From positions 236,215 to 300,214 of the forward strand of contig CAYFPM010000001.1 of NCBI GenBank assembly GCA_964345045.1: a stretch of DNA of 64,000 nt. The letters are read 5' to 3'. Positions within the stretch are counted from its first letter, which is position 1; each line of letters starts with the position of its first letter. The notes beneath the pieces are model-generated. The model did no database searches, was not told the origin of the DNA, and saw only the letters and a program-made list of their open reading frames with translations. This DNA comes from an uncultured Gammaproteobacteria bacterium. Its GTDB lineage: Bacteria > Patescibacteriota > Patescibacteriia > Magasanikbacterales > UBA922. This document shows positions 1 through 55,972 of the stretch, piece after piece. A program made the translations under genes and the position numbers.

Positions 1-132
1 ATTGTGGTGGACACGATGAAAGAAAATGTTACCGGCGCAATAACCGCTAACATCGCAAACATCGTGATCGTGGGAGTGATTATCTTCTCAATCGGATTTG
101 TTTGGCGTCTTGCTCGTCGCTTCATGCGATAG
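1..132 (+). CDS. Partial CDS (C-terminus) of a small membrane protein resembling an inovirus major coat protein
   Basis: Frame 1 reads ...IVVDTMKENVTGAITANIANIVIVGVIIFSIGFVWRLARRFMR*. This gives an amphipathic N-part, a hydrophobic helix and a basic C-tail, which is the classic g8p architecture. It sits directly upstream of the large secreted ORF. Confidence 0.4.
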   Translation: MVVDTMKENVTGAITANIANIVIVGVIIFSIGFVWRLARRFMR

Positions 133-199
133 GCATAGCACGGTGGGGGCTTGCACTCAATATGCAAAGCCCCCAACGCCGTGCAGTAACGAACCTATT

Positions 200-1912
200 A
201 TGAAACTCTCCTTACTTAAATATAGATTACTCCGCACGCTTGCTGTTCTTTCCACTCTTGCCGTGTCTTTTTTGTTTGTCCATGCTGTTCATGCAGAATC
301 ATTCGAGGCAGATGTTGCCGATTTTGCCCCAGCGTCAAATTGGTACACCTGGTTTATTCGAAGCAGTAACGAAACAGGACACGGACAAAAGTTTATCACT
401 GCCGTTGATACAGAAGCAATCCAAACAGTAGGATTTAAATTGTGTCGTCTTGGAAACTTAGTACACCCAAAGACACTCACACTGTGCAACAGTGCAACCA
501 ACGGATGGTACGGAGGATGTAGTGATCCACTCGCCACAAAAGAATTTACCGCAGAAGAACTCAATGAGATGATCCACTACGACCTAAATTGTAATTCTAA
601 CTTAGAGGGTGGACAAGAAGACGGTGAATTTTTTAAGTGGGCATACTTTAGCTTTGATGAGCCTGTAAATGTTAGTAGCTCACAACATTACTTTGTTCTC
701 TTAAACAGTGCGTCGAGTGCTGACAACGAATCAGGCTCTAAACTTCGCACGATGTATAACAACTCAAACTATCTCGGAAGCAGTGCGGATTATCCCGATG
801 GACAAGCCTACTACTACAAAGGAGCAACCAGATACACCTCGGGAGCGTCCACAGATATTTTCTTCAAAATATTTAGTGCTGACCCGATTACAATTCCATT
901 TGAGATTACCTCACCCGTACAAGATCAAGAAGTTATCAATGACACATGGATTACTGTATCGGGAACCTGTCCGTACGTGGGAGAAAATAGAATCGGATTT
1001 ACTGATGACTGTCTCGGATTTGAAGAAATTGAATATACCGCCTCATGTACCGAAGACAATACCTTTTCCGCACAGTTCTACCACACCAGTTTATCCGACC
1101 GAGTGATAGCACGAGATATAGAAAGCGTCTCTGGTGATTGTGTTGATTACGATGACCTCATGGATTTCGTCACGGTAGACGGCATTGAATTTGTGGACGG
1201 CTACCCCGAGGATTGGTATTTCAACTTTGGACTCTACGACGATTACAACATACAAATTAAGTCACCGAGCTTTGATACCGCTCTCACACTCCCGAAAGGC
1301 TCAACCAGTAAAGACTTTACATTTAGCTTTACTTATCCCGATGGAACAATAGATAGCCTGACGTTCAACATCAAACAATATGACAGTGACGGAACAGAAC
1401 TTAATGCGGCATTTCATACTCGCACACTTGCAAGCATGGCGGACACGAACGACTACACCGTAACACTCTCCGCTTCTACGACACCGTATCATTATGTTGT
1501 GCAACTCATAGAAGACGGCACGCTGAAACGACAATATCCATTTGGAGTTTATGTTTCAGATTTAGATTTTGTCGGCAACCCCGACGACGACGGTGGATAT
1601 TTCTTTCCTCGCATTGTCGAAGAACTCCGCAAAAAGATTGTATTCAACTATTACTTTGCCTTTCATGACGGCTTTTACAACATGTTCAATGGACAATATT
1701 CAAGCCCCTCACCGACGGCACTCGACATTACATTCAAAAGTGTATCGGGCAATGGACAGTATGACCTTGACGTCAAAATATTTTCCGCGAGCGATCCACG
1801 AGTAAAGGCATTTTCAAGTGGTCTTCGTCCGTACATTGTCGCCCTCTTGTGGCTCGGCTTTGCTCTTTACGTGGTGTTCCGAGTGACGCATTTATTCAGT
1901 GATAACCAGTAG
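200..1912 (+). CDS. Large secreted protein with C-terminal membrane anchor. Candidate phage adsorption/minor coat protein (g3p-like by position).
   Basis: Internal Met at 200 begins MKLSLLKYRLLRTLAVLSTLAVSFLFVHAVHA, a signal peptide. The C-terminus PYIVALLWLGFALYVVFRV is a TM segment. It lies between the coat-like ORF and the Zot-like ORF. No sequence-level homolog recognised. Confidence 0.5.
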   Translation: MKLSLLKYRLLRTLAVLSTLAVSFLFVHAVHAESFEADVADFAPASNWYTWFIRSSNETGHGQKFITAVDTEAIQTVGFKLCRLGNLVHPKTLTLCNSATNGWYGGCSDPLATKEFTAEELNEMIHYDLNCNSNLEGGQEDGEFFKWAYFSFDEPVNVSSSQHYFVLLNSASSADNESGSKLRTMYNNSNYLGSSADYPDGQAYYYKGATRYTSGASTDIFFKIFSADPITIPFEITSPVQDQEVINDTWITVSGTCPYVGENRIGFTDDCLGFEEIEYTASCTEDNTFSAQFYHTSLSDRVIARDIESVSGDCVDYDDLMDFVTVDGIEFVDGYPEDWYFNFGLYDDYNIQIKSPSFDTALTLPKGSTSKDFTFSFTYPDGTIDSLTFNIKQYDSDGTELNAAFHTRTLASMADTNDYTVTLSASTTPYHYVVQLIEDGTLKRQYPFGVYVSDLDFVGNPDDDGGYFFPRIVEELRKKIVFNYYFAFHDGFYNMFNGQYSSPSPTALDITFKSVSGNGQYDLDVKIFSASDPRVKAFSSGLRPYIVALLWLGFALYVVFRVTHLFSDNQ

Positions 1913-1915
1913 CCT

Positions 1916-2161
1916 ATGTTTAGCTTTATAGAATCAATCCTTGTAAAGATTATTTCGCTTTTGCCTGACGCTGATCCGAGCAATTCCGTTATCACGGCCG
2001 TAACGAGTGCGTTTGCGACAATCACCCCGACATTCTCACAAATTGACCTTATCTTCCCGATATTCGTCTTGTTCAAAGTCTTGCTTCTCGTGATGTTCGT
2101 TGAAATGACCATATTCTTATTCACCTTTATCTTGCAAATCGCAACATTCTTTAAGCCATAA
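1916..2161 (+). CDS. Small hydrophobic membrane protein (g6p-like by position)
   Basis: 81 aa with two or three hydrophobic helices. It is tightly packed between the adsorption-like and Zot-like genes, with a 4-nt gap and then a 5-nt gap. Confidence 0.4.
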   Translation: MFSFIESILVKIISLLPDADPSNSVITAVTSAFATITPTFSQIDLIFPIFVLFKVLLLVMFVEMTIFLFTFILQIATFFKP

Positions 2162-2166
2162 CTAAT

Positions 2167-2871
2167 ATGATCACCATTGTTACAGGAAAACCAGGAGCAG
2201 GAAAAACCCTCTACATGACATACAAGGCACTTGAGATGTTTCTCAAAGGACATGATGTATACGCAAATTGGAAACTCAACTTCACGCCCTATGTCATAAA
2301 GAAAAAAGTGGACTTGAAAAAAGTCGGCCGTGTCTACTTCTGGTCTGAAATACCTGAACTCCTCCATATTAAAGGCGGACAGATATTTATAGACGAAGCC
2401 CAAGGATATTTTGATAGCCGTGAGTGGCAAGACATGCCTCCGTCGGCAAAACAAAAATTCTCTGCTCACCGTCACGATGTACGGAAAGATAAAGATGGAA
2501 ATACCATCCCACTCGACATATACGCAGGCGTACAACATACAGGAAACATTGATAAACGGATACGAGATTTAGGACAACACTTTCTAGAAGTACGCAATGT
2601 CTTCAAAAAAGTATTCATGGCTTCACACTTTGAACTGCATGATCTCAAAGATGACAACGTAAAACGACGAGCCATTAAACGCTCATTCTTCCTCATGAAC
2701 AAACTCAAAGCCAACTGCTACAACACCCACGAAGCCGTGAACTTCATCGAATACCCAAACTTCCCATACCACCGAAAATATCCGCACAGATTCTCCAACG
2801 AAAATACAGGACTCATTCCCGACACCCCAGACATACCCCCATATTCCAATCAGCAACGCAAAAAAAGGTAG
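2167..2871 (+). CDS. Zot-like P-loop NTPase (filamentous-phage assembly protein, g1p family N-domain)
   Basis: N-terminus MITIVTGKPGAGKTLYMTY is a Walker A motif. IFIDEAQ is a Walker B-like motif. 234 aa is consistent with the Zot N-terminal domain. Confidence 0.65.
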   Translation: MITIVTGKPGAGKTLYMTYKALEMFLKGHDVYANWKLNFTPYVIKKKVDLKKVGRVYFWSEIPELLHIKGGQIFIDEAQGYFDSREWQDMPPSAKQKFSAHRHDVRKDKDGNTIPLDIYAGVQHTGNIDKRIRDLGQHFLEVRNVFKKVFMASHFELHDLKDDNVKRRAIKRSFFLMNKLKANCYNTHEAVNFIEYPNFPYHRKYPHRFSNENTGLIPDTPDIPPYSNQQRKKR

Positions 2872-2879
2872 TAGTTCAA

Positions 2880-3281
2880 TTAAGAACTACTACCGACCTG
2901 TTCTACTTGCTTAATGTAAAACAGGTTTACCCGTTTCGGGTATTTGCGAACGACAGTACCGTCCTTGTCTTTCTTCTCAATGATGATGAAAGACTTGAGG
3001 GCTTTTTCGCCCTTTTTAACCTGATAGCCCATTTCGAGCCATCGGTTATACGTTAAACAATTACTTTTTGGATCGTAATTGTTTGCGTCTTCTTCGCCGA
3101 ACCGATCAAGGATCTGTTTGCGAATAAGGTCTGAAGTTACTTCAGAACCTTTCCATGTGGAAACTAATTTGTTTTCCATAGAACTAAATATATCACGGTC
3201 GAATGAAAACGTCCGTGGCTGACCGTTTAGTGCCGTATCGGACAGGAACAGAAACAGCGTCTGATAGCTTGCTTTAGTCAA
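2880..3281 (-). CDS. ArdC-N / DUF1738-like ssDNA-binding domain protein
   Basis: The motif CLTYNRWLEMGYQVKKGEKALKSFII matches the ArdC N-domain signature WLTFKQA..LGG.VRKGEKG. It is divergent to Rep, in the position where an ssDNA-binding protein (gV analogue) would be expected. Confidence 0.45.
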   Translation of the reverse strand: MTKASYQTLFLFLSDTALNGQPRTFSFDRDIFSSMENKLVSTWKGSEVTSDLIRKQILDRFGEEDANNYDPKSNCLTYNRWLEMGYQVKKGEKALKSFIIIEKKDKDGTVVRKYPKRVNLFYIKQVEQVGSSS

Positions 3282-3405
3282 GGTGGAGACTTGTACAACC
3301 TTTATTCAAGAAAAGCTGACGCTACACTGAAACAACCTGATACGGAAAAAACGAGCTACATATTATCTATCGGTGAATCTATACCGATCATCCCGTAAGT
3401 AATCA

Positions 3406-3435
3406 TTTTTTTCTCGTCTGCCCGACGAAAAAAAA
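3406..3435. promoter_or_regulatory. A/T-flanked hairpin in the divergent intergenic region upstream of Rep. Candidate rolling-circle origin (nick site hairpin).
   Basis: tttttttctcgtc tgccc gacgaaaaaaaa forms a long imperfect hairpin. A second inverted repeat atcggt..accgat lies at 3367-3390. Confidence 0.25.
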
Positions 3436-3514
3436 TGAGTGCTTGCGAGAGGTATATCGCAGATACAACTATTACTCTCTTAACTTGATTATATCCACAC
3501 ATCTAACGAAAACT

Positions 3515-4291
3515 ATGGCACATTCCTACACACTCAAAGTAGTTGTGTCGGGAAAGCAGGTCGAAGTATTCAAATATAGCAAAGAAGTGTGGCGTGACTA
3601 TGACTCATCTCCAAAACAAGTCACTACTCAAAAGGAGTCCAAGCAATTAAACATGTTCGAACAAGAAGCACTGCGACAGAAAAAGGTGCAATATTCAATT
3701 AACCGAACGAAAACAGAGATACGCCGTCAAATTAACGCCAATCCGCAACTGAATAAGTTTATGACCCTGACTTTCGCCGACAACATCACTGACATCAAAA
3801 CTGCGAACTACATGTTTAATCAGTTTATTAAGCGTATCTCATATAAATACAAAAATTTCGAGTACTTTGCTGTACCTGAATTTCAAAAGCGTGGGGCTGT
3901 TCACTATCATGTGCTATGCAACCTACCATACATCGAAATGAACGTCTTAGAGTACGTTTGGGGGCATGGCATGGTAAATATCCGTAAAGTAGACGAAGTG
4001 AACAACCTCGGGGCGTACATGAGCAAATACTTAGGTAAAGAACTGTTCTCTGGTCGCATGTTTGGTAAAAAGAAATTCTTTCGTTCACAGTCCTTAAAAT
4101 CTCCTGTAGAGCTTCTTGCATGGTGGGCGAGAAAGTTTATTGAGAAGTTTCTTTCACTGCTCACACCAGTCTTTGAAAAGACGTTTGAGAGTGAATACAT
4201 GGGAGAGGTTGAGTACAAGGCGTATACGCTCGACTTTTTCCCGTCCAAGTGCAATGACCCGCAATGGTCGATAGTTTTTAATAACTCCTAA
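3515..4291 (+). CDS. Rolling-circle replication initiator (HUH endonuclease superfamily, phage Rep/gpA-like)
   Basis: HUH motif in GAVHYHVLCN. Two-tyrosine motif YMSKYLGKE (YxxKY). The likely start is the internal Met MAHSYTLK. The listed ORF starts at 3443. Confidence 0.65.
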   Translation: MAHSYTLKVVVSGKQVEVFKYSKEVWRDYDSSPKQVTTQKESKQLNMFEQEALRQKKVQYSINRTKTEIRRQINANPQLNKFMTLTFADNITDIKTANYMFNQFIKRISYKYKNFEYFAVPEFQKRGAVHYHVLCNLPYIEMNVLEYVWGHGMVNIRKVDEVNNLGAYMSKYLGKELFSGRMFGKKKFFRSQSLKSPVELLAWWARKFIEKFLSLLTPVFEKTFESEYMGEVEYKAYTLDFFPSKCNDPQWSIVFNNS

Positions 4292-4292
4292 C

Positions 4293-4451
4293 ATGATCTC
4301 TCTTGCGAAATTCAAAGAGCTTACCGAGTCGGAAGGTCTATACCTATCTGATCTTGAGGCACTCGAAGCAAGAGAAACAATCTCCCAGTTATTAGAAATT
4401 GCGTTCAATACATGGATGGAACAACAAAAAGAAACAAAAACATCGACTTGA
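4293..4451 (+). CDS. Small hypothetical ORF (52 aa) between Rep and recombinase. Possible recombination directionality factor or other.
   Basis: ATG..TGA open frame MISLAKFKELTESEGLYLSDLEALEARETISQLLEIAFNTWMEQQKETKTST, below the ORF-track cutoff. No recognised motif. Confidence 0.2.
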   Translation: MISLAKFKELTESEGLYLSDLEALEARETISQLLEIAFNTWMEQQKETKTST

Positions 4452-4608
4452 TTTTTTTGTATGTTCTTGATACTATTCCTTTGGACTCAACTCAAATCAC
4501 GATTTTTTTGTGCCATAATTTTTGATATTGTGGCGAGAAAAGGGAGCAATCCTGCTTCAACGTCTTCGTGATTGTTGAGTCCAAGCAGTTCTTTGCTTCC
4601 TTTTTTAT

Positions 4609-6150
4609 TTGCATATGAAAAAACAACTACAACGAGGTGTCATCTATTACAGAGTATCGACAGCAGAACAGGCTGAACGTGGTTTTAGTTTGGAAAATCA
4701 ACGTGAGGCGTGTTTGCATTACGCAAAAAGCAAGGACATTGATGTGATAGGCGAATATCATGATGACGGAATTTCTGCAAAGACAACAAATCGCAAAGGG
4801 CTACAGAATATGCTCCAATTTTGTTCTACCAAAAGCAATAAGATTGATTGTGTGATTGTAAACAAGGTTGACCGCCTTTCTCGAGATGTGAATGATTACA
4901 CGAGTATTTTCACACAGCTCAAAGGGCGAGGTATCACGCTCATCTCTACCACGGAAGCAATAGACAATACACCATTTGGAAAGTGTGTCGGTAATATCAT
5001 GGCGACATTTGCACAGCTAGACAATGACATGCGAAGCGAGCGAGTCACGGCAGGAATGAAAAAATGTATTGAGTCTGGTCGCTGGCCGTTCAAGGCTCGC
5101 ATTGGGTATCTCAATTACACAGACGCAGACGGCAACAAAAGCATAATTGTTGATCACAAAAAAGCTCCATTGGTACGCTTCATTTTTGAAGAATATGCAA
5201 AAGGAGTATACACCGAGGAAGAAGTACGGCAACAAGTAAACGCCAAGGGATTGCGTTCATCGAATGGAAAAGAAGTATCTCCGCAGTTTATCCATAAAAT
5301 ACTCTCTGATAAATTCTATATCAGTATCATGACAATGAACGGCGTGGAATATCCAGCATCGCATGAGCCGATTATCCGCAATGAAACGTATTATCAGTGC
5401 CAAAAGTTCATGCGAAAGTACGACAAAAAGACAAACATGTCGCTCAAAAAGAAAAACGAGCTATTTCCGCTTAGAAATTTTGTATTGTGTGGAGAGTGTA
5501 GTCGTCCATTAACCGCTTCTTTGTCTACCAGTCATACAGGCAAGAAATTTCCATATTATCGGTGCTATAACAAAGAATGCACTGCTCCAAAGTCTCTCTC
5601 TAAGGACAGGCTAGAGAGTGAGTTTTTCGATTTTCTCAAAGAACTTGCACCAGACAAACGGTATCTCAAAGTTATACGACACATGGCTCTTGAACTATGG
5701 GAAAAGAAGTATAAAGAGATGAATGTAAGCAATGAACAAATACAGAGAGAAATTGACATACTCAAAGAGAAAAAAAGAAAGACCTTTGATCTGCTCGGCA
5801 AAGGTATTATTGATGATGAAGATTTCAAAGAAGAACTTGACCGCATTAAAGCCTCGATTCAAGATAAAGAAGAATTGCTACACCAAACACCCAAAGAAAA
5901 TTTTGACCTAGAGAAAGCAATGGATATGTGTTTTGATTTCTTTTTGGAAGTGCCTGAACATTGGCAAAAGGCGACCTACACAAAGAAAATACAACTTCAG
6001 AGTTCGATTTTTTCAAAAAAACCCTCGTACCATTATCCAAAATTTGGAACCCCTAATTTTTCGCTAATCTTTCAACAAAAAAGAGACTCTGCACATGCAA
6101 AATCCCTTTTGGTAGCCCGTAGGGGAATCGAACCCCTGTTCCCAGGATGA
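4609..6150 (+). CDS. Large serine recombinase (resolvase/invertase N-domain, recombinase domain and zinc ribbon). Candidate integrase of the element.
   Basis: N-terminus VIYYRVSTAEQAERGFSLENQRE carries the catalytic Ser motif. C-terminal half has Cys pairs LCGECSRPL...YYRCYN. The last 41 nt overlap the 3' end of tRNA-Glu on the opposite strand. Confidence 0.85.
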   Translation: MHMKKQLQRGVIYYRVSTAEQAERGFSLENQREACLHYAKSKDIDVIGEYHDDGISAKTTNRKGLQNMLQFCSTKSNKIDCVIVNKVDRLSRDVNDYTSIFTQLKGRGITLISTTEAIDNTPFGKCVGNIMATFAQLDNDMRSERVTAGMKKCIESGRWPFKARIGYLNYTDADGNKSIIVDHKKAPLVRFIFEEYAKGVYTEEEVRQQVNAKGLRSSNGKEVSPQFIHKILSDKFYISIMTMNGVEYPASHEPIIRNETYYQCQKFMRKYDKKTNMSLKKKNELFPLRNFVLCGECSRPLTASLSTSHTGKKFPYYRCYNKECTAPKSLSKDRLESEFFDFLKELAPDKRYLKVIRHMALELWEKKYKEMNVSNEQIQREIDILKEKKRKTFDLLGKGIIDDEDFKEELDRIKASIQDKEELLHQTPKENFDLEKAMDMCFDFFLEVPEHWQKATYTKKIQLQSSIFSKKPSYHYPKFGTPNFSLIFQQKRDSAHAKSLLVARRGIEPLFPG

Positions 6151-6184
6151 AAACCTGGTGTCCTAACCACTAGACGAACGGGCC
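6110..6184 (-). tRNA. tRNA-Glu (anticodon TTC), CCA encoded
   Basis: Reverse complement GGCCCGTTCGTCTAGTGGTTAGGACACCAGGTTTTCATCCTGGGAACAGGGGTTCGATTCCCCTACGGGCTACCA. The acceptor stem pairs, the anticodon loop is TTTTCAT and the T-loop is GGTTCGATTCC. Confidence 0.85.
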
Positions 6185-27479: not shown

Positions 27480-27551
27480 GTCATCCTGAGGTAAAACCGA
27501 AGGATCTCATTGGAAGTCCGAAGAGATTCTTCCCTGTCGCTTAGAATGACT
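27480..27551. repeat. Hairpin repeat family F1, copy 1
   Basis: gtcatcctgag gtaaaaccgaaggatctc attggaagtccgaag agattcttccctgtcgc ttagaatgact. Confidence 0.7.
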
Positions 27552-30383: not shown

Positions 30384-30477
30384 AGTCATCCTGAGCAAAG
30401 TGAGCTTAAAAGGCGAACGCCGTCGAAGGATCTCTTCGGACTTCCACTGAGATTCTTCGCTGACGCTCAGAATGACT
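30384..30477. repeat. Hairpin repeat family F1, copy 2 (central loop inverted relative to copy 3)
   Basis: agtcatcctgagc ... cgaaggatctc ttcggacttccactgag attcttcgc tgac gctcagaatgact. The loop is the reverse complement of the copy-3 loop. Confidence 0.7.
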
Positions 30478-33769: not shown

Positions 33770-34100
33770 TTGTTAATCTAAGCAAAGTGGCGCTGAATAA
33801 CAGGGCAGGAGAGTGATCCTGTTTTGTTTACGGCGTTAGATTCTCTAAGGAAGGAGGAGATGTGGTACTCAAATACTGGCATAAGCTATGCCGTTGGTGG
33901 TCTTCACCACCTGTACAGGAGGTGGTTGTCTCGCGACACAAGTCGACCGTCATCGAGAGCGTCAACTTGCGGATGTGGAGCGCTCCGGCCTGGAGGCGCA
34001 TCGCTCGCAAGCTCGAACTGTCGCGTCGGGGGGCAAGCTAGACGAGTCTTGGCTGGCAGGTATCGGTTGTCACTGACCGATACCTGCCATCTGCCTATCA
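33770..34100. other. GC-rich (about 60%) segment with no convincing ORF, inside the liv operon
   Basis: Strong hairpins, including ccacctgtacaggaggtgg and the 13-bp stem ggcaggtatcggt tgtcactg accgatacctgcc. The overlapping listed ORFs give low-complexity Arg/Ser/Gly-rich translations. Confidence 0.3.
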
Positions 34101-44845: not shown

Positions 44846-45715
44846 CTAGATGTTTTTTTCAAAGACAAGTAGTTCGTGGTACTCGGGAACCAAAGGTAGA
44901 TCTATCCCGAGAGTCTCTTGGGCTACTAGTGTTGTGCCGCTAGCTTGGAATGTTTCGATCCATTCGTATTTTCGGAAGAAGTTCCCCGGTACAGGGATCT
45001 CTGCTCCATTGTGCAGACAACGGTTGTAGAACCAGTTGATGAACGCTTGCACATGCCAAGGAATGTACTGGTTGATAACTGATTCTATGATCACCACTTT
45101 TTGGGCCACCTGCAAGAGGCGATCTATTTCTGCAATTGGATCATCGCAATGATGGAGTACCGTAGATGCAACCGCCACGTCAAAAGGCGCGGCCTTGATC
45201 ACTTCTTCCCAATCTGTAGTAAACTGGAAACCGGAAGCTTGAGTAGCCTCGTGGATACGGTAGTCCGATACGTCGTATAATACCGTTTGACCAAATGGTC
45301 CCAGTCGTTCCGAAAGCCGGAGCATGATTTCGGCATCTCCGCAGCCAAAGTCAAGGACTTTTTGACCTTTGTGGCCGATCATATATGGAGTCAGATGCCC
45401 CACAAAGACTTCTGTCCTATCGTGGAGAGAGGGACGAATTACCGTTCCGCTCCTTTGGAGGAGCTTGTAGATTTCTTGAACAGCTTCTGGTTCACCCTCG
45501 GTGTCGTGAACTACAGTGGCAATCTGGGATTCCAGTTGAACACGTTGGGCGTGTTCGATCCCTAGTTGGATCAGCATCATCTGTAGTGGCCAGAAAATTT
45601 GTTCTAGTGGATATGAACCTAGGGATTCACGCATTTTGGTGTACATCTTTTGGGTGCTCTCGAGCATCTTTGCTCTCCTTCCGCTACTTGGCGGGGTTGG
45701 GGGTGAAAAAAACAA
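44846..45715 (-). CDS. Class I SAM-dependent methyltransferase (GC-rich, likely horizontally acquired)
   Basis: VLDFGCGDAEIMLRL is motif I. GC is well above the backbone. The true start may be the internal MLESTQK. Confidence 0.7.
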   Translation of the reverse strand: MFFSPPTPPSSGRRAKMLESTQKMYTKMRESLGSYPLEQIFWPLQMMLIQLGIEHAQRVQLESQIATVVHDTEGEPEAVQEIYKLLQRSGTVIRPSLHDRTEVFVGHLTPYMIGHKGQKVLDFGCGDAEIMLRLSERLGPFGQTVLYDVSDYRIHEATQASGFQFTTDWEEVIKAAPFDVAVASTVLHHCDDPIAEIDRLLQVAQKVVIIESVINQYIPWHVQAFINWFYNRCLHNGAEIPVPGNFFRKYEWIETFQASGTTLVAQETLGIDLPLVPEYHELLVFEKNI

Positions 45716-45832
45716 AAAATATCATAACTATTGTTATGACAAATTAAATTAACATATTTTTATATTTACGTCAATTTAGGGGGGGAATGTTTTACAAAAC
45801 AAAAAAACTACTTTTCAGTAGCTTTTTTTTCT

Positions 45833-45851
45833 GTGCGCGCCGAGGGAATCT
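45833..45851. repeat. Direct repeat of the 3' end of tRNA-Val, about 145 nt from the gene
   Basis: tgtgcgcgccgagggaatc versus cgtgcgcgccgagggattc at the tRNA 3' end. Confidence 0.6.
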
Positions 45852-45995
45852 CACTCGCTTCGCTCTCACGAAAACCTTCGGGTTTTCGTGGACTTTCCTC
45901 GGCATGTAAGGGGCTCTGCCCCTTACCATCCCCGGTTCGAATCCCTGTGCACTTACAAAACAAAAAAACCACCATCTGGTGATTTTTTTATTTCG

Positions 45996-46069
45996 TGCGC
46001 GCCGAGGGATTCGAACCCCCGACCCCCTCGGTGTAAACGAGATGCTCTAACCAACTGAGCTAGGCGCGC
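45996..46069 (-). tRNA. tRNA-Val (anticodon TAC), CCA not encoded
   Basis: Reverse complement GCGCGCCTAGCTCAGTTGGTTAGAGCATCTCGTTTACACCGAGGGGGTCGGGGGTTCGAATCCCTCGGCGCGCA. Confidence 0.85.
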
Positions 46070-47562: not shown

Positions 47563-48711
47563 ATGTCAGAAAAATATTATTTTACTTCGGAATCTGTATC
47601 CGAAGGGCATCCGGACAAAATTTGTGATCAGATATCCGACGCAGTCCTAGACGCAATTATTGCCGACGATCCAGAGGCAAGAGTAGCCGTAGAGTGTCTT
47701 ACCAAAACCGGTTTTGTAATTGTTGCCGGAGAAGTGCGTACCAAGACTTATGTAGACGTACAAAAGATCGCTCGCGATACAATTTTGGAAATTGGTTACA
47801 ATGATCCTTCTTTTGGATTTGAAGGAAGTACTTGTGGAGTCTTGTCTGCTATCTCGGAGCAATCACCAGATATTGCTATGGGAGTAGACGAAGGGCAAGA
47901 AAAAGAATTGGGAGCAGGGGATCAAGGATTGATGTTTGGTTATGCCAGTAATGAAACTCCGGAATACATGCCACTACCAATTATAATGGCACACAAAATT
48001 ACCAAAAAATTATCAGAAGTGCGAAAAGCAAAAGAGCTAAATTATTTGCGTCCCGATGCCAAGAGCCAGGTAACAGTAGAGTACGTAGATGGGCAACCTC
48101 AAAGAATTGATACTGTAGTAGTCTCTACCCAACACAATCCAGACATATCACTAGAAACTATTCGTGAAGATGTAATTGAAAAAATTGTAAAACCAGTTTG
48201 TGGAGATTGGTTGGACGAAAATACCAAATACCATATCAACCCTACAGGTAAGTTTGTAATCGGAGGGCCGGTAGGAGATGCTGGTTTAACCGGTAGAAAA
48301 ATTATTGTCGATACTTATGGTGGACATGGTAGCCATGGTGGAGGATGTTTTTCTGGCAAAGATCCAAGCAAGGTAGACAGATCTGCTTCTTACTATGCTC
48401 GCTACGTAGCCAAAAATGTAGTCGCTGCCGGATTGGCCGACAAGTGTGAAGTGCAAGTAGCTTATGCTATTGGGGTGACTGACCCGGTTAGTATTTTGGT
48501 ACAAACTTTTGGAACTGGCAAAAAATCAGATAACGAAATTGAAAAAATTGTTAAAGAAGTTTTTGATTTTCGACCAAAAGCTATTATAGAGCAGCTAGAT
48601 CTACTAAAGCCTATTTACAAAGCTACGGCAGCCTACGGACACTTTGGTCGAGACGAATTCCCTTGGGAAAAATTGGACAAAGTAGAAGAATTAAAAATTA
48701 AAATAAGTTAA
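47563..48711 (+). CDS. metK: S-adenosylmethionine synthetase
   Basis: [21 protein letters not shown]...GGGAFSGKD-type motifs ([10 protein letters not shown]). Confidence 0.95.
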
Positions 48712-48718
48712 ATAAAAA

Positions 48719-48750
48719 TCCCGTACCAATTAGGTACGGGATTGTTTTTT
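48719..48750 (+). terminator. Rho-independent terminator after metK
   Basis: cccgtaccaattaggtacggg attgtttttt. Confidence 0.65.
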
Positions 48751-48756
48751 GAGAAG

Positions 48757-49339
48757 TTGAGTGTCGCGTGACCCAACTCTTCACCTAAGGAAGTTCAGAC
48801 CCTTCATCCCTACCTGGCCTCAAGAGGAGGCGCAGGTGGGCTTCCGTTTTGTCAGTTTGAGGGGCCCCAAGCAACTTGTCCGCCGGTTGCTTTCGGGGAA
48901 GTATGTTTAGGGCGGCATTCACCACCCCTTTCAACGTGTCGGAAGTGTAAGGTCTTTCCAAGTACCCCTGAATTATCCCACCTTCAATCAACTGGCGCAT
49001 TTCGGGCACAACAGCGCTCGACCAGCCAGAAGTTATGACGACAGAAGTCTCCCAGTCGGTTCCTCGGAGTTCCTGAACAAATCGCAAACCGAACGCGTCC
49101 TTACCTAGGTTTACAATAACCAGGCGGAATTGTCCGGATTGTGCTCGTTGAATTCCTTCGCCGCCATCGCTGGTCGACGAAACTTCCACACTTTTCACAC
49201 AGCGTGAGATGCCCCGATGTAACATCTCTGCCATCGGGAACCTCACGTTGGTGTCCACTACCAGTATTTTGTGCAAGAGGCACCCCCTTTCGTGGGGTCA
49301 TCCCTTCTCGCTAGCTAGGAGTGGGTCACGCGACAAGCC
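48757..49339. mobile_element. GC-rich (about 55%) cassette bounded by inverted repeats of about 18 bp, carrying one ORF
   Basis: Left gagtgtcgcgtgacccaactc and right gagtgggtcacgcgacaag are reverse complements of each other, 17 of 18 positions. The cassette sits between the metK terminator and uppP. Confidence 0.45.
48785..49276 (-). CDS. Stand-alone CheY-like receiver domain with Asp-to-Asn at the phospho-acceptor position (pseudo-receiver)
   Basis: KILVVDTN... QFRLVIVNLGKD ... SVVITSG ... GGIIQGYLERPYT follow the receiver-fold motif order. Asn stands where the phosphorylated Asp would be. Confidence 0.5.
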   Translation of the reverse strand: MHKILVVDTNVRFPMAEMLHRGISRCVKSVEVSSTSDGGEGIQRAQSGQFRLVIVNLGKDAFGLRFVQELRGTDWETSVVITSGWSSAVVPEMRQLIEGGIIQGYLERPYTSDTLKGVVNAALNILPRKQPADKLLGAPQTDKTEAHLRLLLRPGRDEGSELP

Positions 49340-49414
49340 ATTCTATTATATTTTTTAGGTATTGTCAAGGCATAAGATTGCTTTTTTGCCTAAAATAAGC
49401 TATTATCTCTGTAT

Positions 49415-50323
49415 ATGACAGCTCTAGAAGCCCTAGTTTTGGGCATAATCCAAGGTTTAACAGAGTTTTTGCCAGTCTCTTCGTCTGGCCATCTTGTATT
49501 TATGCCACATATTTTTGGCTGGGCATATCAGGGTTTGGCTTTCGATGTAGTGGTGCATATGGGCACTTTGGTGGCAGTAATTTTTTATTTTAGAAAAAAG
49601 CTGTGGCAGATAGTAAAGTCTCTTTTTTCCAAGAATATTGGTCAGACTGCCGGTACTCCCTTAGACTCGTCCTCCCTTCCGCAGACCCCCTCTTCCCGCT
49701 CGCTCCGCTCGCGGGGTCTCCCCCTAAAAGGGGGAGAGGAAACAAATGTTTCTAGACTAGGATGGTTTCTTTTGCTTAGCATTATCCCAGCTGGTTTATT
49801 TGGATTGCTACTGGGGGATTTTGTAGAGACTAGTTTGCGTTCGCCTTGGGTGGTGGGAGTTAGTCTAATTTTTTGGGCAGTGGTACTGGCTGCTGCCGAT
49901 GGTTTTGGCAAAGGCCTTGCAGACAAAAAAGCCAACAAAGACTTAGAAAAAATAACTTTTAAAAATGTGTTGTTTATTGCCTTGGCTCAGGCAATAGCTT
50001 TAATCCCAGGGACTTCTCGTTCTGGTATTACTATGACTGCCGGGCTATTTGCTAAGCTAGACAAAAAGTCTGCTGCCGAATTTAGTTTTCTTATGTCGGT
50101 GCCGGTCATAACTTTGGCCGGAGTCTACAAACTTTTTCAAGTAATAAACAATGGAACAATGGGGCAATGGGACAATACGTTTTTAGTAGGCTTCTTGGCT
50201 TCCACAATCAGTGGTTTTCTAGCTATCAAGTTTTTAATGAAGATAATCCAAAAGTGGAGTTTTATGCCGTTTGTAGTTTATAGAGTGGCCATTGGGACTC
50301 TCATCCTTTTTTATCTTACTTAA
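49415..50323 (+). CDS. uppP: Undecaprenyl-diphosphatase (BacA/UppP) with an in-frame GC-rich hairpin insertion in a loop
   Basis: GLTEFLPVSSSGHL ... PGTSRSGITM are BacA motifs. A roughly 35-aa Pro/Ser/Arg-rich insert (TAGTPLDSSSLPQTPSSRSLRSRGLPLKGGEETNV) sits between TM2 and TM3. Confidence 0.9.
   Translation: MTALEALVLGIIQGLTEFLPVSSSGHLVFMPHIFGWAYQGLAFDVVVHMGTLVAVIFYFRKKLWQIVKSLFSKNIGQTAGTPLDSSSLPQTPSSRSLRSRGLPLKGGEETNVSRLGWFLLLSIIPAGLFGLLLGDFVETSLRSPWVVGVSLIFWAVVLAAADGFGKGLADKKANKDLEKITFKNVLFIALAQAIALIPGTSRSGITMTAGLFAKLDKKSAAEFSFLMSVPVITLAGVYKLFQVINNGTMGQWDNTFLVGFLASTISGFLAIKFLMKIIQKWSFMPFVVYRVAIGTLILFYLT
49655..49745. repeat. F2-family GC-rich hairpin element inserted in-frame in uppP
   Basis: gctcgctccgctcgcgggg tctcccccTAAAAgggggaga gg. 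Compare 8629..8692. Confidence 0.55.
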
Positions 50324-55900: not shown

Positions 55901-55972
55901 AGTCATCCTGAGCGTAAGCGAAGGATCTCAGTGGAAGTCCGAAGAGATCCTTCGCTTACGCTCAGGATGACT
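55901..55972. repeat. Hairpin repeat family F1, copy 3 (perfect 29-bp stem)
   Basis: agtcatcctgagcgtaagcgaaggatctc agtggaagtccgaag agatccttcgcttacgctcaggatgact. Confidence 0.8.

Follow-up and report, generated by a model that had tools for sequence, protein, structure and literature searches.

What is the inverted repeat for that frames a small, GC-rich, receiver-encoding segment lodged between metK and uppP? The question concerns positions 48757-49339 of a 64-kb stretch of DNA, which we analyzed as a whole and call the window. The answer that we favor, at a little short of an even chance, is that the segment is a transcription unit of accessory nature and probably foreign origin, that the two ends of its mRNA pair with one another as a terminal helix, and that the window copy of this unit encodes a degenerate, aspartate-less receiver. 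The features of the window on which the argument draws are as follows, with nt for nucleotides and ORF for open reading frame.

47521/47563-48711, plus strand: metK (strong Pfam match).
48717-48743, both strands: bidirectional intrinsic terminator common to metK (plus) and the receiver gene (minus); on either strand, the terminator scan returns one and the same 11-bp stem, flanked by T-rich tails.
48762-48779, minus strand: left arm of the repeat and, in the mRNA, 3' arm of the predicted terminal helix, in the 3' untranslated region 6-10 nt after the stop codon.
48785-49276, minus strand: ORF for a 163-residue stand-alone aspartate-less (pseudo-)receiver (ORF list, Pfam, AlphaFold2, Foldseek and alignments).
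49283-49289, minus strand: Shine-Dalgarno-like AAGGGGG, 6 nt upstream of the TTG start, read from the sequence and with a putative function.
49299-49301, minus strand: upstream ATG, 25 nt out of frame with the receiver ORF, opening a 66-residue overlapping ORF (49101-49301).
49319-49335, minus strand: right arm of the repeat, the 5' arm of the predicted mRNA helix, starting at the predicted transcription start.
49340-49368, minus strand: sigma-70-like promoter TTGACA-17-TAGAAT (11 of 12 positions, promoter scan), AT-rich, outside the repeat and reading into the segment.
49415-50323: uppP (strong Pfam match).

The original prediction described a segment of about 580 bp and 55% GC directly after the metK terminator, delimited by near-perfect inverted repeats and carrying a single minus-strand ORF; all of this is borne out. 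Positions 48757-49339 are 54.0% GC, compared with 38.0% for the window and 36-39% for the flanks, and they make up the largest and longest GC-rich island of the 64 kb. The left arm begins about 10-19 nt past the metK terminator hairpin, at 48762, and the only ORF within the segment lies on the minus strand, in a region (11-59 kb) where nearly all genes are on the plus strand. This ORF has a GC content at third codon positions (GC3) of 0.56, compared with 0.33 ± 0.08 for 45 host ORFs, and its codon-adaptation score of 0.52 is below that of every host ORF (0.69 ± 0.07). The repeat is perfect: TGTCGCGTGACCCA at 48762-48775 has its exact complement at 49322-49335 (14 of 14 nt), and past a 1-nt bulge three more pairs, CTC/GAG, bring it to 17 bp. 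Distant inverted repeats never reached 14 nt when 48600-49500 was put through 1000 rounds of dinucleotide shuffling; 13 nt was the maximum, found once (P<0.001). Five contigs, drawn from two samples and made with three assemblers, carry the same metK-uppP locus without a difference in sequence or orientation; all are consensus assemblies. The locus is thus no assembly chimera, and no inversion is visible.

The arms sit where the predicted transcript begins and ends. The -10 hexamer ends at 49340, and a start 5-9 nt downstream corresponds to the first bases of the 5' arm. In partition-function folding of the predicted 623-nt transcript, the arms form 16 consecutive pairs with a probability of ~1.0. 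The Shine-Dalgarno-like run falls 47-53 nt from the predicted 5' end, outside this helix, leaving the ribosome-binding site unmasked.

We looked up the loci of ten relatives, chosen from the closest UppP sequences; these are 55-59% identical to that of the window and, where named, belong to Candidatus Magasanikbacteria or Patescibacteria. The interval between metK and uppP turns out to be a variable slot:

L156/L157, L158, L160: metK directly followed by uppP, with a 76-121-nt spacer that by eye holds only a terminator and the uppP promoter.
L155, L159, L161: a minus-strand, Pfam-positive Response_reg gene (153, 142 and 126 residues, respectively) in the same slot and orientation.
L155 (3563-3871), L161 (3593-3898): a small GC-rich membrane-protein gene beyond the receiver.
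L166/L167 (identical loci): an unrelated minus-strand ORF for a 105-residue two-helix membrane protein (L166 2378-2836).
L162: an insertion sequence with an rve-type DDE transposase (479-1620) directly upstream of uppP, on a short contig that lacks metK.
L163-L165: contigs ending before the receiver position, with a membrane-protein gene homologous to that of L161 (L163 1-450).
L168: contig beginning at uppP, uninformative.

Four of these entries call for further description. The insertion sequence of L162 has imperfect terminal repeats of ~25 nt and adjoins another GC-rich minus-strand gene of no assigned function. The L163 membrane-protein gene lies immediately upstream of uppP. The membrane proteins of L155, L161 and L163 consist of two helices followed by a basic, Pro-rich tail; in L155 and L161, the corresponding gene comes with a promoter and a terminator of its own and lacks an end-to-end repeat. 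These small membrane proteins could be partners of the receivers.

All five of the metK-proximal genes in this slot, including that of the window, are bracketed, each by its own, different inverted repeat of 10-14 nt:

Window: 14 nt, 48762-48775 and 49322-49335.
L155: GCTCGGATGAC, 11 nt, 2904-2914 and 3398-3408.
L159: TGGTGTGTCC, 10 nt, 1431-1440 and 1947-1956.
L161: TGTGG(T)CCGACCT, 12 nt plus bulge, 2935-2946 and 3413-3425.
L166: GCAGGTGGAGCTGC, perfect 14 nt, 2378-2391 and 2823-2836.

We scored the local complementarity between the 100 nt around the start codon and the 100 nt after the stop codon; this score replaced RNAduplex energies, which were not discriminating because they allow long loops. 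The window, L155, L159, L161 and L166 score 14.5, 11, 11, 9.5 and 14, respectively. Shuffled sequences score ~7 ± 1 (7.1 ± 1.0 for the window), and the observed score was reached in 0, 3, 0, 8 and 0 of 300 shuffles; for 124 control ORFs, the 95th percentile is 10 and the 99th is 11. The metK-distal membrane-protein genes of L155 and L161 score 7, the same as shuffles.

The placement of the arms recurs as well. In the window, L155, L161 and L166, a sigma-70-like site on the strand of the gene ends 4, 5, 8 and 10 nt, respectively, upstream of the 5' arm, which therefore begins at the expected transcription start or a few bases from it; in L166 the promoter, TTGACA-17-TAAAGT, is just outside the repeat. 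At the other end, the 3' arm lies 13-18 nt before an A-run and terminator hairpin in the window, L159 and L161, and ~25 nt (L155) or ~45 nt (L166) before the terminator in the remaining two. Partition-function folding gives the terminal helix a pair probability of ~1.0 in all five predicted transcripts, with helix lengths of 16 bp in the window, 13 in L155, ~16 in L159, 12+8 in L161 and ~17 in L166. No motif is common to the arms of the five loci, in keeping with selection for pairing and not for a sequence that a protein binds. Predicted pairing is kept across five related loci despite different arm sequences, and is found in neither of the two distal slot genes. The occurrence of different repeats at the predicted transcript ends argues for a conserved architecture of the gene adjoining the metK terminator and not for the ends of a family-specific transposon.

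Since the repeats differ in sequence, keep their complementarity, and sit at both predicted mRNA ends, a helix at the RNA level is the simplest account of them. The unit in the window would read, in order: promoter (49368-49340), 5' arm, Shine-Dalgarno-like sequence, receiver ORF, 3' arm, and the shared bidirectional terminator. The two repeats would then be the two ends of one mRNA, with the 5' arm at the predicted start and the 3' arm just before the terminator, and this mRNA would close into a 16-17-bp terminal helix stacked beside the terminator hairpin. Such a helix could bury the 5' end and so protect the transcript from 5'-end-dependent RNases, create a processing site for a double-strand-specific enzyme, or do both. 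The coding regions of the four receivers fold with z-scores of -4.2, -2.0, -2.4 and -2.4, which are below that of metK (~0) but overlap those of uppP (0 to -2.9), and selection for structure in the receiver coding regions is possible.

Several observations weigh against this account of the unit. The L161 score of 9.5 reaches only the 90th percentile of the control ORFs, a strict scan finds no promoter for L159, and the transcript ends in all loci are consensus predictions. The helix cores are perfectly Watson-Crick, which would suit DNA recombination sites equally well; the few G-U pairs on the sense strand of the helices are weak evidence, and duplex energies show no consistent preference for the sense strand (-36 versus -41 in the window, -47 versus -53 in L161). 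The receivers have diverged so far, with no detectable similarity between those of the window and L161, that common descent of the window copy is not established, and the window ORF, which has no close homologue, may be a decaying pseudogene. Finally, a role in RNA leaves unexplained why only the metK-proximal gene has the repeat and why the slot genes are GC-rich.

The protein itself was predicted to have a receiver fold with Asn in place of the phospho-acceptor Asp, and this holds, with two further active-site losses. The ORF starts at TTG (the public gene call uses the ATG at 49234, yielding 149 residues). Pfam Response_reg (PF00072) aligns over positions 2-109 of 111 with an E-value of 1.4e-4; the alignment is nearly full-length but the score of 22.4 bits is under the gathering score of 30.2. 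Matches to regulators in NCBIfam and to CheY among PDB sequences are only weak. An exhaustive phmmer search of 1.84 billion representatives returned the ORF itself and 45 distant matches, the best at an E-value of 4.7e-9 and 27% identity; twelve short matches that we aligned are all receiver-like. A word-indexed search of 5.8 billion proteins recovered only the window ORF itself, with the same outcome for the L155 receiver, and no relatives of the protein were found in viral contigs. By these searches the window receiver is an orphan.

From 16 of the phmmer matches, AlphaFold2 built a model that has a predicted local distance difference test (pLDDT) score of 82 and the b1a1-b5a5 order of elements: residues 1-124 form a receiver (REC) fold, the doubly wound (beta-alpha)5 architecture, and residues 125-163 a low-confidence tail. 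All 50 of the PDB matches listed by Foldseek are REC domains or REC-containing regulators with a probability of 1.0; the target template-modeling score is ~0.8 for isolated REC domains, and the root-mean-square deviation is mostly 2-3 Å. Two independent alignments place Asn56 at CheY D57, Thr9 at D13 and Arg108 at K109, which bears out the predicted D-to-N change; D8 (CheY D12) and the Ser/Thr position are retained. Three of the five residues of the canonical phosphotransfer quintet (DD, D, S/T, K) are therefore lost (D13T, D57N, K109R). The D57 position is Asp in the other 13 of 13 sequences of one alignment (A1) and the other 4 of 4 of another (A5). By definition, this makes the protein an aspartate-less pseudo-receiver, as judged from its sequence (PMC12632262). 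Without the acceptor Asp, phosphorylation at the canonical site is impossible; if it still works, the window receiver would act through protein-protein contacts. The Pfam scan (ORFs of at least 120 residues outside ~40-59.6 kb) and the precomputed gene calls (~40-59 kb), which served for transposases, kinases and recombinases alike, show no histidine kinase gene in the window.

The receivers of L155, L159 and L161 keep DD, D, S/T and K in full; only the window copy is degenerate. The four are 24-34% identical to each other, compared with 51-62% for UppP and 60-86% for MetK, and their similarity ranges from an E-value of 3e-14 (L155 and L159) through 1e-5 (window and L155) to undetectable (window and L161). 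The window copy thus appears to be a degenerate or re-purposed derivative of a canonical receiver, or its replacement. The N-terminus of the 66-residue overlapping ORF, MTPRKG, resembles the receiver N-termini MTQKG (L155) and MSQRK (L161). Speculatively, the upstream ATG may be the ancestral start, put out of frame by a +1 shift within the five consecutive G residues at 49283-49287, a run that is now Shine-Dalgarno-like. The slot genes have a GC3 of 0.50-0.73, compared with 0.27-0.42 in their flanks; all five metK-proximal genes are GC3-rich, including the L166 ORF (0.73, flanks 0.29-0.32). The foreign-like GC3 of every slot gene suggests that the slot receives or retains horizontally derived DNA. 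Overall, the locus is best seen as a variable slot that holds repeat-bracketed accessory genes in this clade of the candidate phyla radiation (CPR), with the window gene as a degenerate member.

Could the repeats instead act in DNA? The original prediction had taken the segment for a small horizontally acquired module; its composition and its absence from three related loci speak for acquisition, but its mobility as a repeat-bounded module is not supported in the form stated. In one reading of this kind, the segment would be the relic of a non-autonomous mobile cassette, like a mobile insertion cassette (MIC) or a miniature inverted-repeat transposable element (MITE), once served by a transposase in trans that delivered GC-rich cargo horizontally beside the metK terminator. 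Perfect 14-nt terminal repeats exactly at the compositional boundaries speak for such a relic, as do the foreign-like codon usage of the ORF, the patchy presence among relatives, the different but likewise repeat-bracketed cargo of L166, and the rve-transposase insertion sequence in the same slot of L162. Yet a check for a target-site duplication found none; the flanks (...GTTGAG and AGCCAT...) share at most 2 nt, and the T-runs on either side of the segment are already in tandem at empty sites. The search for further copies of the repeat, which had also been proposed, gave none beyond chance in the window with up to 3 mismatches, and none paired or joined to other cargo in IMG/VR or the JGI metagenomes. 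There, the pattern TGTCGCGTGACCCA(N0-1)CTC has 2 and 66 matches, respectively, almost all of them single chance matches in GC-rich DNA; the only AT-rich pair (L112) is 1450 nt apart with 1 mismatch, in a gene-poor region with no long ORFs, and another match (L092) is a local palindrome in 70% GC DNA. Neither the Pfam scan nor the precomputed gene calls show a transposase in the 64 kb, and blastn of the segment against plasmids and phages gave no match. The promoter that would drive the gene lies outside the right arm; it appears to be part of the indel block, with no counterpart by eye in the empty spacers, which hold only the terminator and the uppP promoter (MAFFT alignments of occupied and empty spacers are too divergent to fix the indel limits). 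The five loci have no common terminal motif, the cargo is seen in one context only across the five contigs, and the distal slot genes have no repeats. We consider such a relic unlikely. It is decidedly unlikely, in our view, that the post-metK slot of Magasanikbacteria-like CPR genomes is a dedicated landing site for single-gene GC-rich units of varied cargo (receivers, small membrane proteins), each delivered or rearranged through its own repeat pair, with the repeats acting in DNA instead of, or in addition to, the mRNA. Ultra-small genomes would then contain a kind of small gene cassette or invertible gene that has not been described before. The variety of cargo, the patchiness of the distribution and the presence of an insertion sequence in this slot do lend DNA-level readings some weight. 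More improbable still is an inverton, in which the repeats would be crossover sites and a site-specific recombinase would flip the gene relative to a fixed outside promoter, switching the receiver on and off. The repeats do lie directly downstream of a strong external promoter in four loci, and arms that stay identical to each other while their sequence differs between species are what recombination-driven homogenization gives. By analogy, an atypical response-regulator operon, cmrRST of C. difficile, is reportedly under phase-variable control, as described in a preprint. However, known invertons usually carry their promoter inside the invertible segment, the inverted state here would express no plausible product, and no dedicated invertase was found; the only recombinase in the 64 kb is a large serine integrase 43 kb away in a prophage-like element. 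Only one orientation appears in the five contigs, although a minority orientation is possible in consensus assemblies.

The two remaining alternatives bear on the gene more than on the repeats. If the gene were a decaying pseudogene, the repeats would no longer matter and the unit would be heading to the deletion seen in the empty-site relatives. D13T, D57N and K109R occur only in the window copy, the most divergent of the four receivers, while its three positional counterparts are canonical; its upstream ATG is 25 nt out of frame and followed by an N-terminus like those of L155 and L161; and the ORF is an orphan among ~15 billion proteins. On the other hand, a 163-codon open frame at 54% GC is unlikely without selection (~0.0015 per frame by our own estimate), the modeled REC fold is well packed, and the promoter (11/12), Shine-Dalgarno-like sequence and repeat (14/14) are all intact. 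Loss of D and the K-to-R change are, moreover, typical of functional pseudo-receivers (PMC12632262). Decay strikes us as improbable, to about the same degree as a dedicated landing site. A GC-rich island in an AT-rich genome, closed by a long-range stem, is typical of large non-coding RNAs; that the island here is such a structured RNA, and not a protein gene at all, is nevertheless scarcely credible. The whole predicted transcript folds at z = -7.5, and its interior at -3.6 in the sense and -2.6 in the antisense orientation; but neighboring uppP segments also reach about -2 to -3, the ORF takes up 84% of the segment and has a confident receiver fold, and Pfam-positive receivers occupy the same place in relatives. 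Rfam, run on the whole window at the gathering threshold and on 48650-49450 at E<=1, gave only chance matches to terminator hairpins and none to the segment.

We also considered an integron attC site, because GTTGAGT...ACCCAAC at the left arm resembles core and inverse-core sites. Inspection led us to reject it: the palindrome spans only ~24 bp, the right end has no counterpart, and there is no integrase.

The flanking genes have peculiarities of their own. The window MetK is 78% identical to that of L158 and 61-64% identical to those of the other Magasanikbacteria-like loci, which are 82-86% identical among themselves. Its best matches among GTDB representatives, at 73-77%, are metagenome-assembled genomes labeled Woesearchaeota; the pattern suggests, at the level of sequence, either exchange of metK between CPR and DPANN lineages or mislabeled bins. 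A scan of genome contigs with MetK gave no close relative, and the metK-uppP pair appears in none of its matches. In uppP, an in-frame GC-rich insert occupies 49676-49736, and at least residues 88-105 are absent from 119 homologues. A hairpin in this stretch, CTCCCCCTAAAAGGGGGAG at 49718-49736, overlaps the end of the homologue-absent residues, and the motif CTCCCCCTNNNAGGGGGAG has a second copy just after the L10 gene (8669-8687), where chance would give 0.01 copies. The hairpin may be a small palindromic repeat element able to sit in frame.

Elsewhere in the window, positions 1-6184 hold what looks like an integrated inovirus-like element with raised GC3 and low codon adaptation, which includes the following genes:

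2167-2871: Zot-like ATPase.
3443-4291: REP_ORF2-G2P replication protein.
4609-6150: large serine recombinase, overlapping at its 3' end with a tRNA gene (6113-6184, minus strand).

A Liv-type ABC operon contains another GC-rich island, at 33800-34100 and up to 69% GC, in the spacer that separates its binding-protein gene from its permease gene. This island terminates in a 14-bp hairpin (34054-34089); Rfam gives no match to it, and it could contain a 58-codon ORF with a good Shine-Dalgarno sequence. Stretches of 15-17 nt belonging to the 3' end region of a tRNA gene (45996-46069, minus strand) are repeated 160 nt away (45792-46009), beside a GC-rich minus-strand methyltransferase gene (44846-45715), a pattern whose sequence resembles the att-site remnants of an integrated islet. 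An intergenic sequence of 35 nt is present three times, once inverted, with 91-94% identity (27498-27532, 30425-30459 and 55919-55953).

Pseudo-receivers are common and poorly understood, and an orphan pseudo-receiver with canonical positional counterparts in relatives offers a natural before-and-after pair for the loss of phosphorylation. More unusual are the locus-specific repeats at the predicted transcript ends in five divergent genomes and around two kinds of cargo. If they act in RNA, they represent a simple, testable case of end-to-end pairing of a whole mRNA in bacteria with a minimal RNA-decay machinery; if they act in DNA, they point to an unrecognized cassette or switching mechanism in CPR genomes. 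In both cases, this slot concentrates DNA of foreign composition in a small hot spot, within genomes that are otherwise streamlined.

How does the unit compare with known systems? The protein would be a new member of a common class; the end-to-end bracketing would be a variant of the known 5'-3' pairing within mRNAs or, with lower probability, a variant of cassettes or invertons. Pseudo-receivers account for several percent of receivers; K-to-R is among their commonest substitutions, and for D the change described as common is to Glu, not Asn (PMC12632262). Like the aspartate-less and pseudo-receivers of atypical response regulators (PMC4395418; PMC12632262), the window protein has a (beta-alpha)5 fold with the acceptor Asp replaced, shares the K-to-R change, and is an orphan with no kinase gene nearby. 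It differs in standing alone, with a 40-residue low-confidence tail and no output domain, in having Asn at the D position, and in lacking a detectable close homologue, and its positional counterparts in relatives are canonical receivers.

MICs and MITEs are inverted-repeat-bounded elements without a transposase, with or without passenger genes. The window unit shares with them its shortness, foreign composition, perfect terminal repeats and single passenger gene and, like them, lacks a transposase, but it has no target-site duplication, other copies, cognate insertion sequence or shared terminal motif, and its promoter is outside the repeats. As in an inverton, a stretch a few hundred bp long next to a promoter is enclosed by inverted repeats of 10-14 bp; here, however, the promoter lies outside and the gene in its entirety inside, an invertase gene is missing from the vicinity, and only one orientation is seen.

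The closest parallel for an mRNA terminal helix is icaR of Staphylococcus aureus, where the 5' and 3' untranslated regions of one mRNA base-pair (PMC3868564). The window likewise has complementary 5' and 3' untranslated stretches in one predicted monocistronic mRNA, with a pairing probability of ~1, and its double-stranded region could be a substrate for RNase III. The 5'-3' fold-back of hok mRNA is a second example of intramolecular end pairing. In contrast to icaR, the predicted helix in the window is formed by the very 5' end and the stretch that directly precedes the terminator, and it leaves the Shine-Dalgarno sequence uncovered; the predicted pairing recurs in five loci with unrelated arms and even unrelated cargo.

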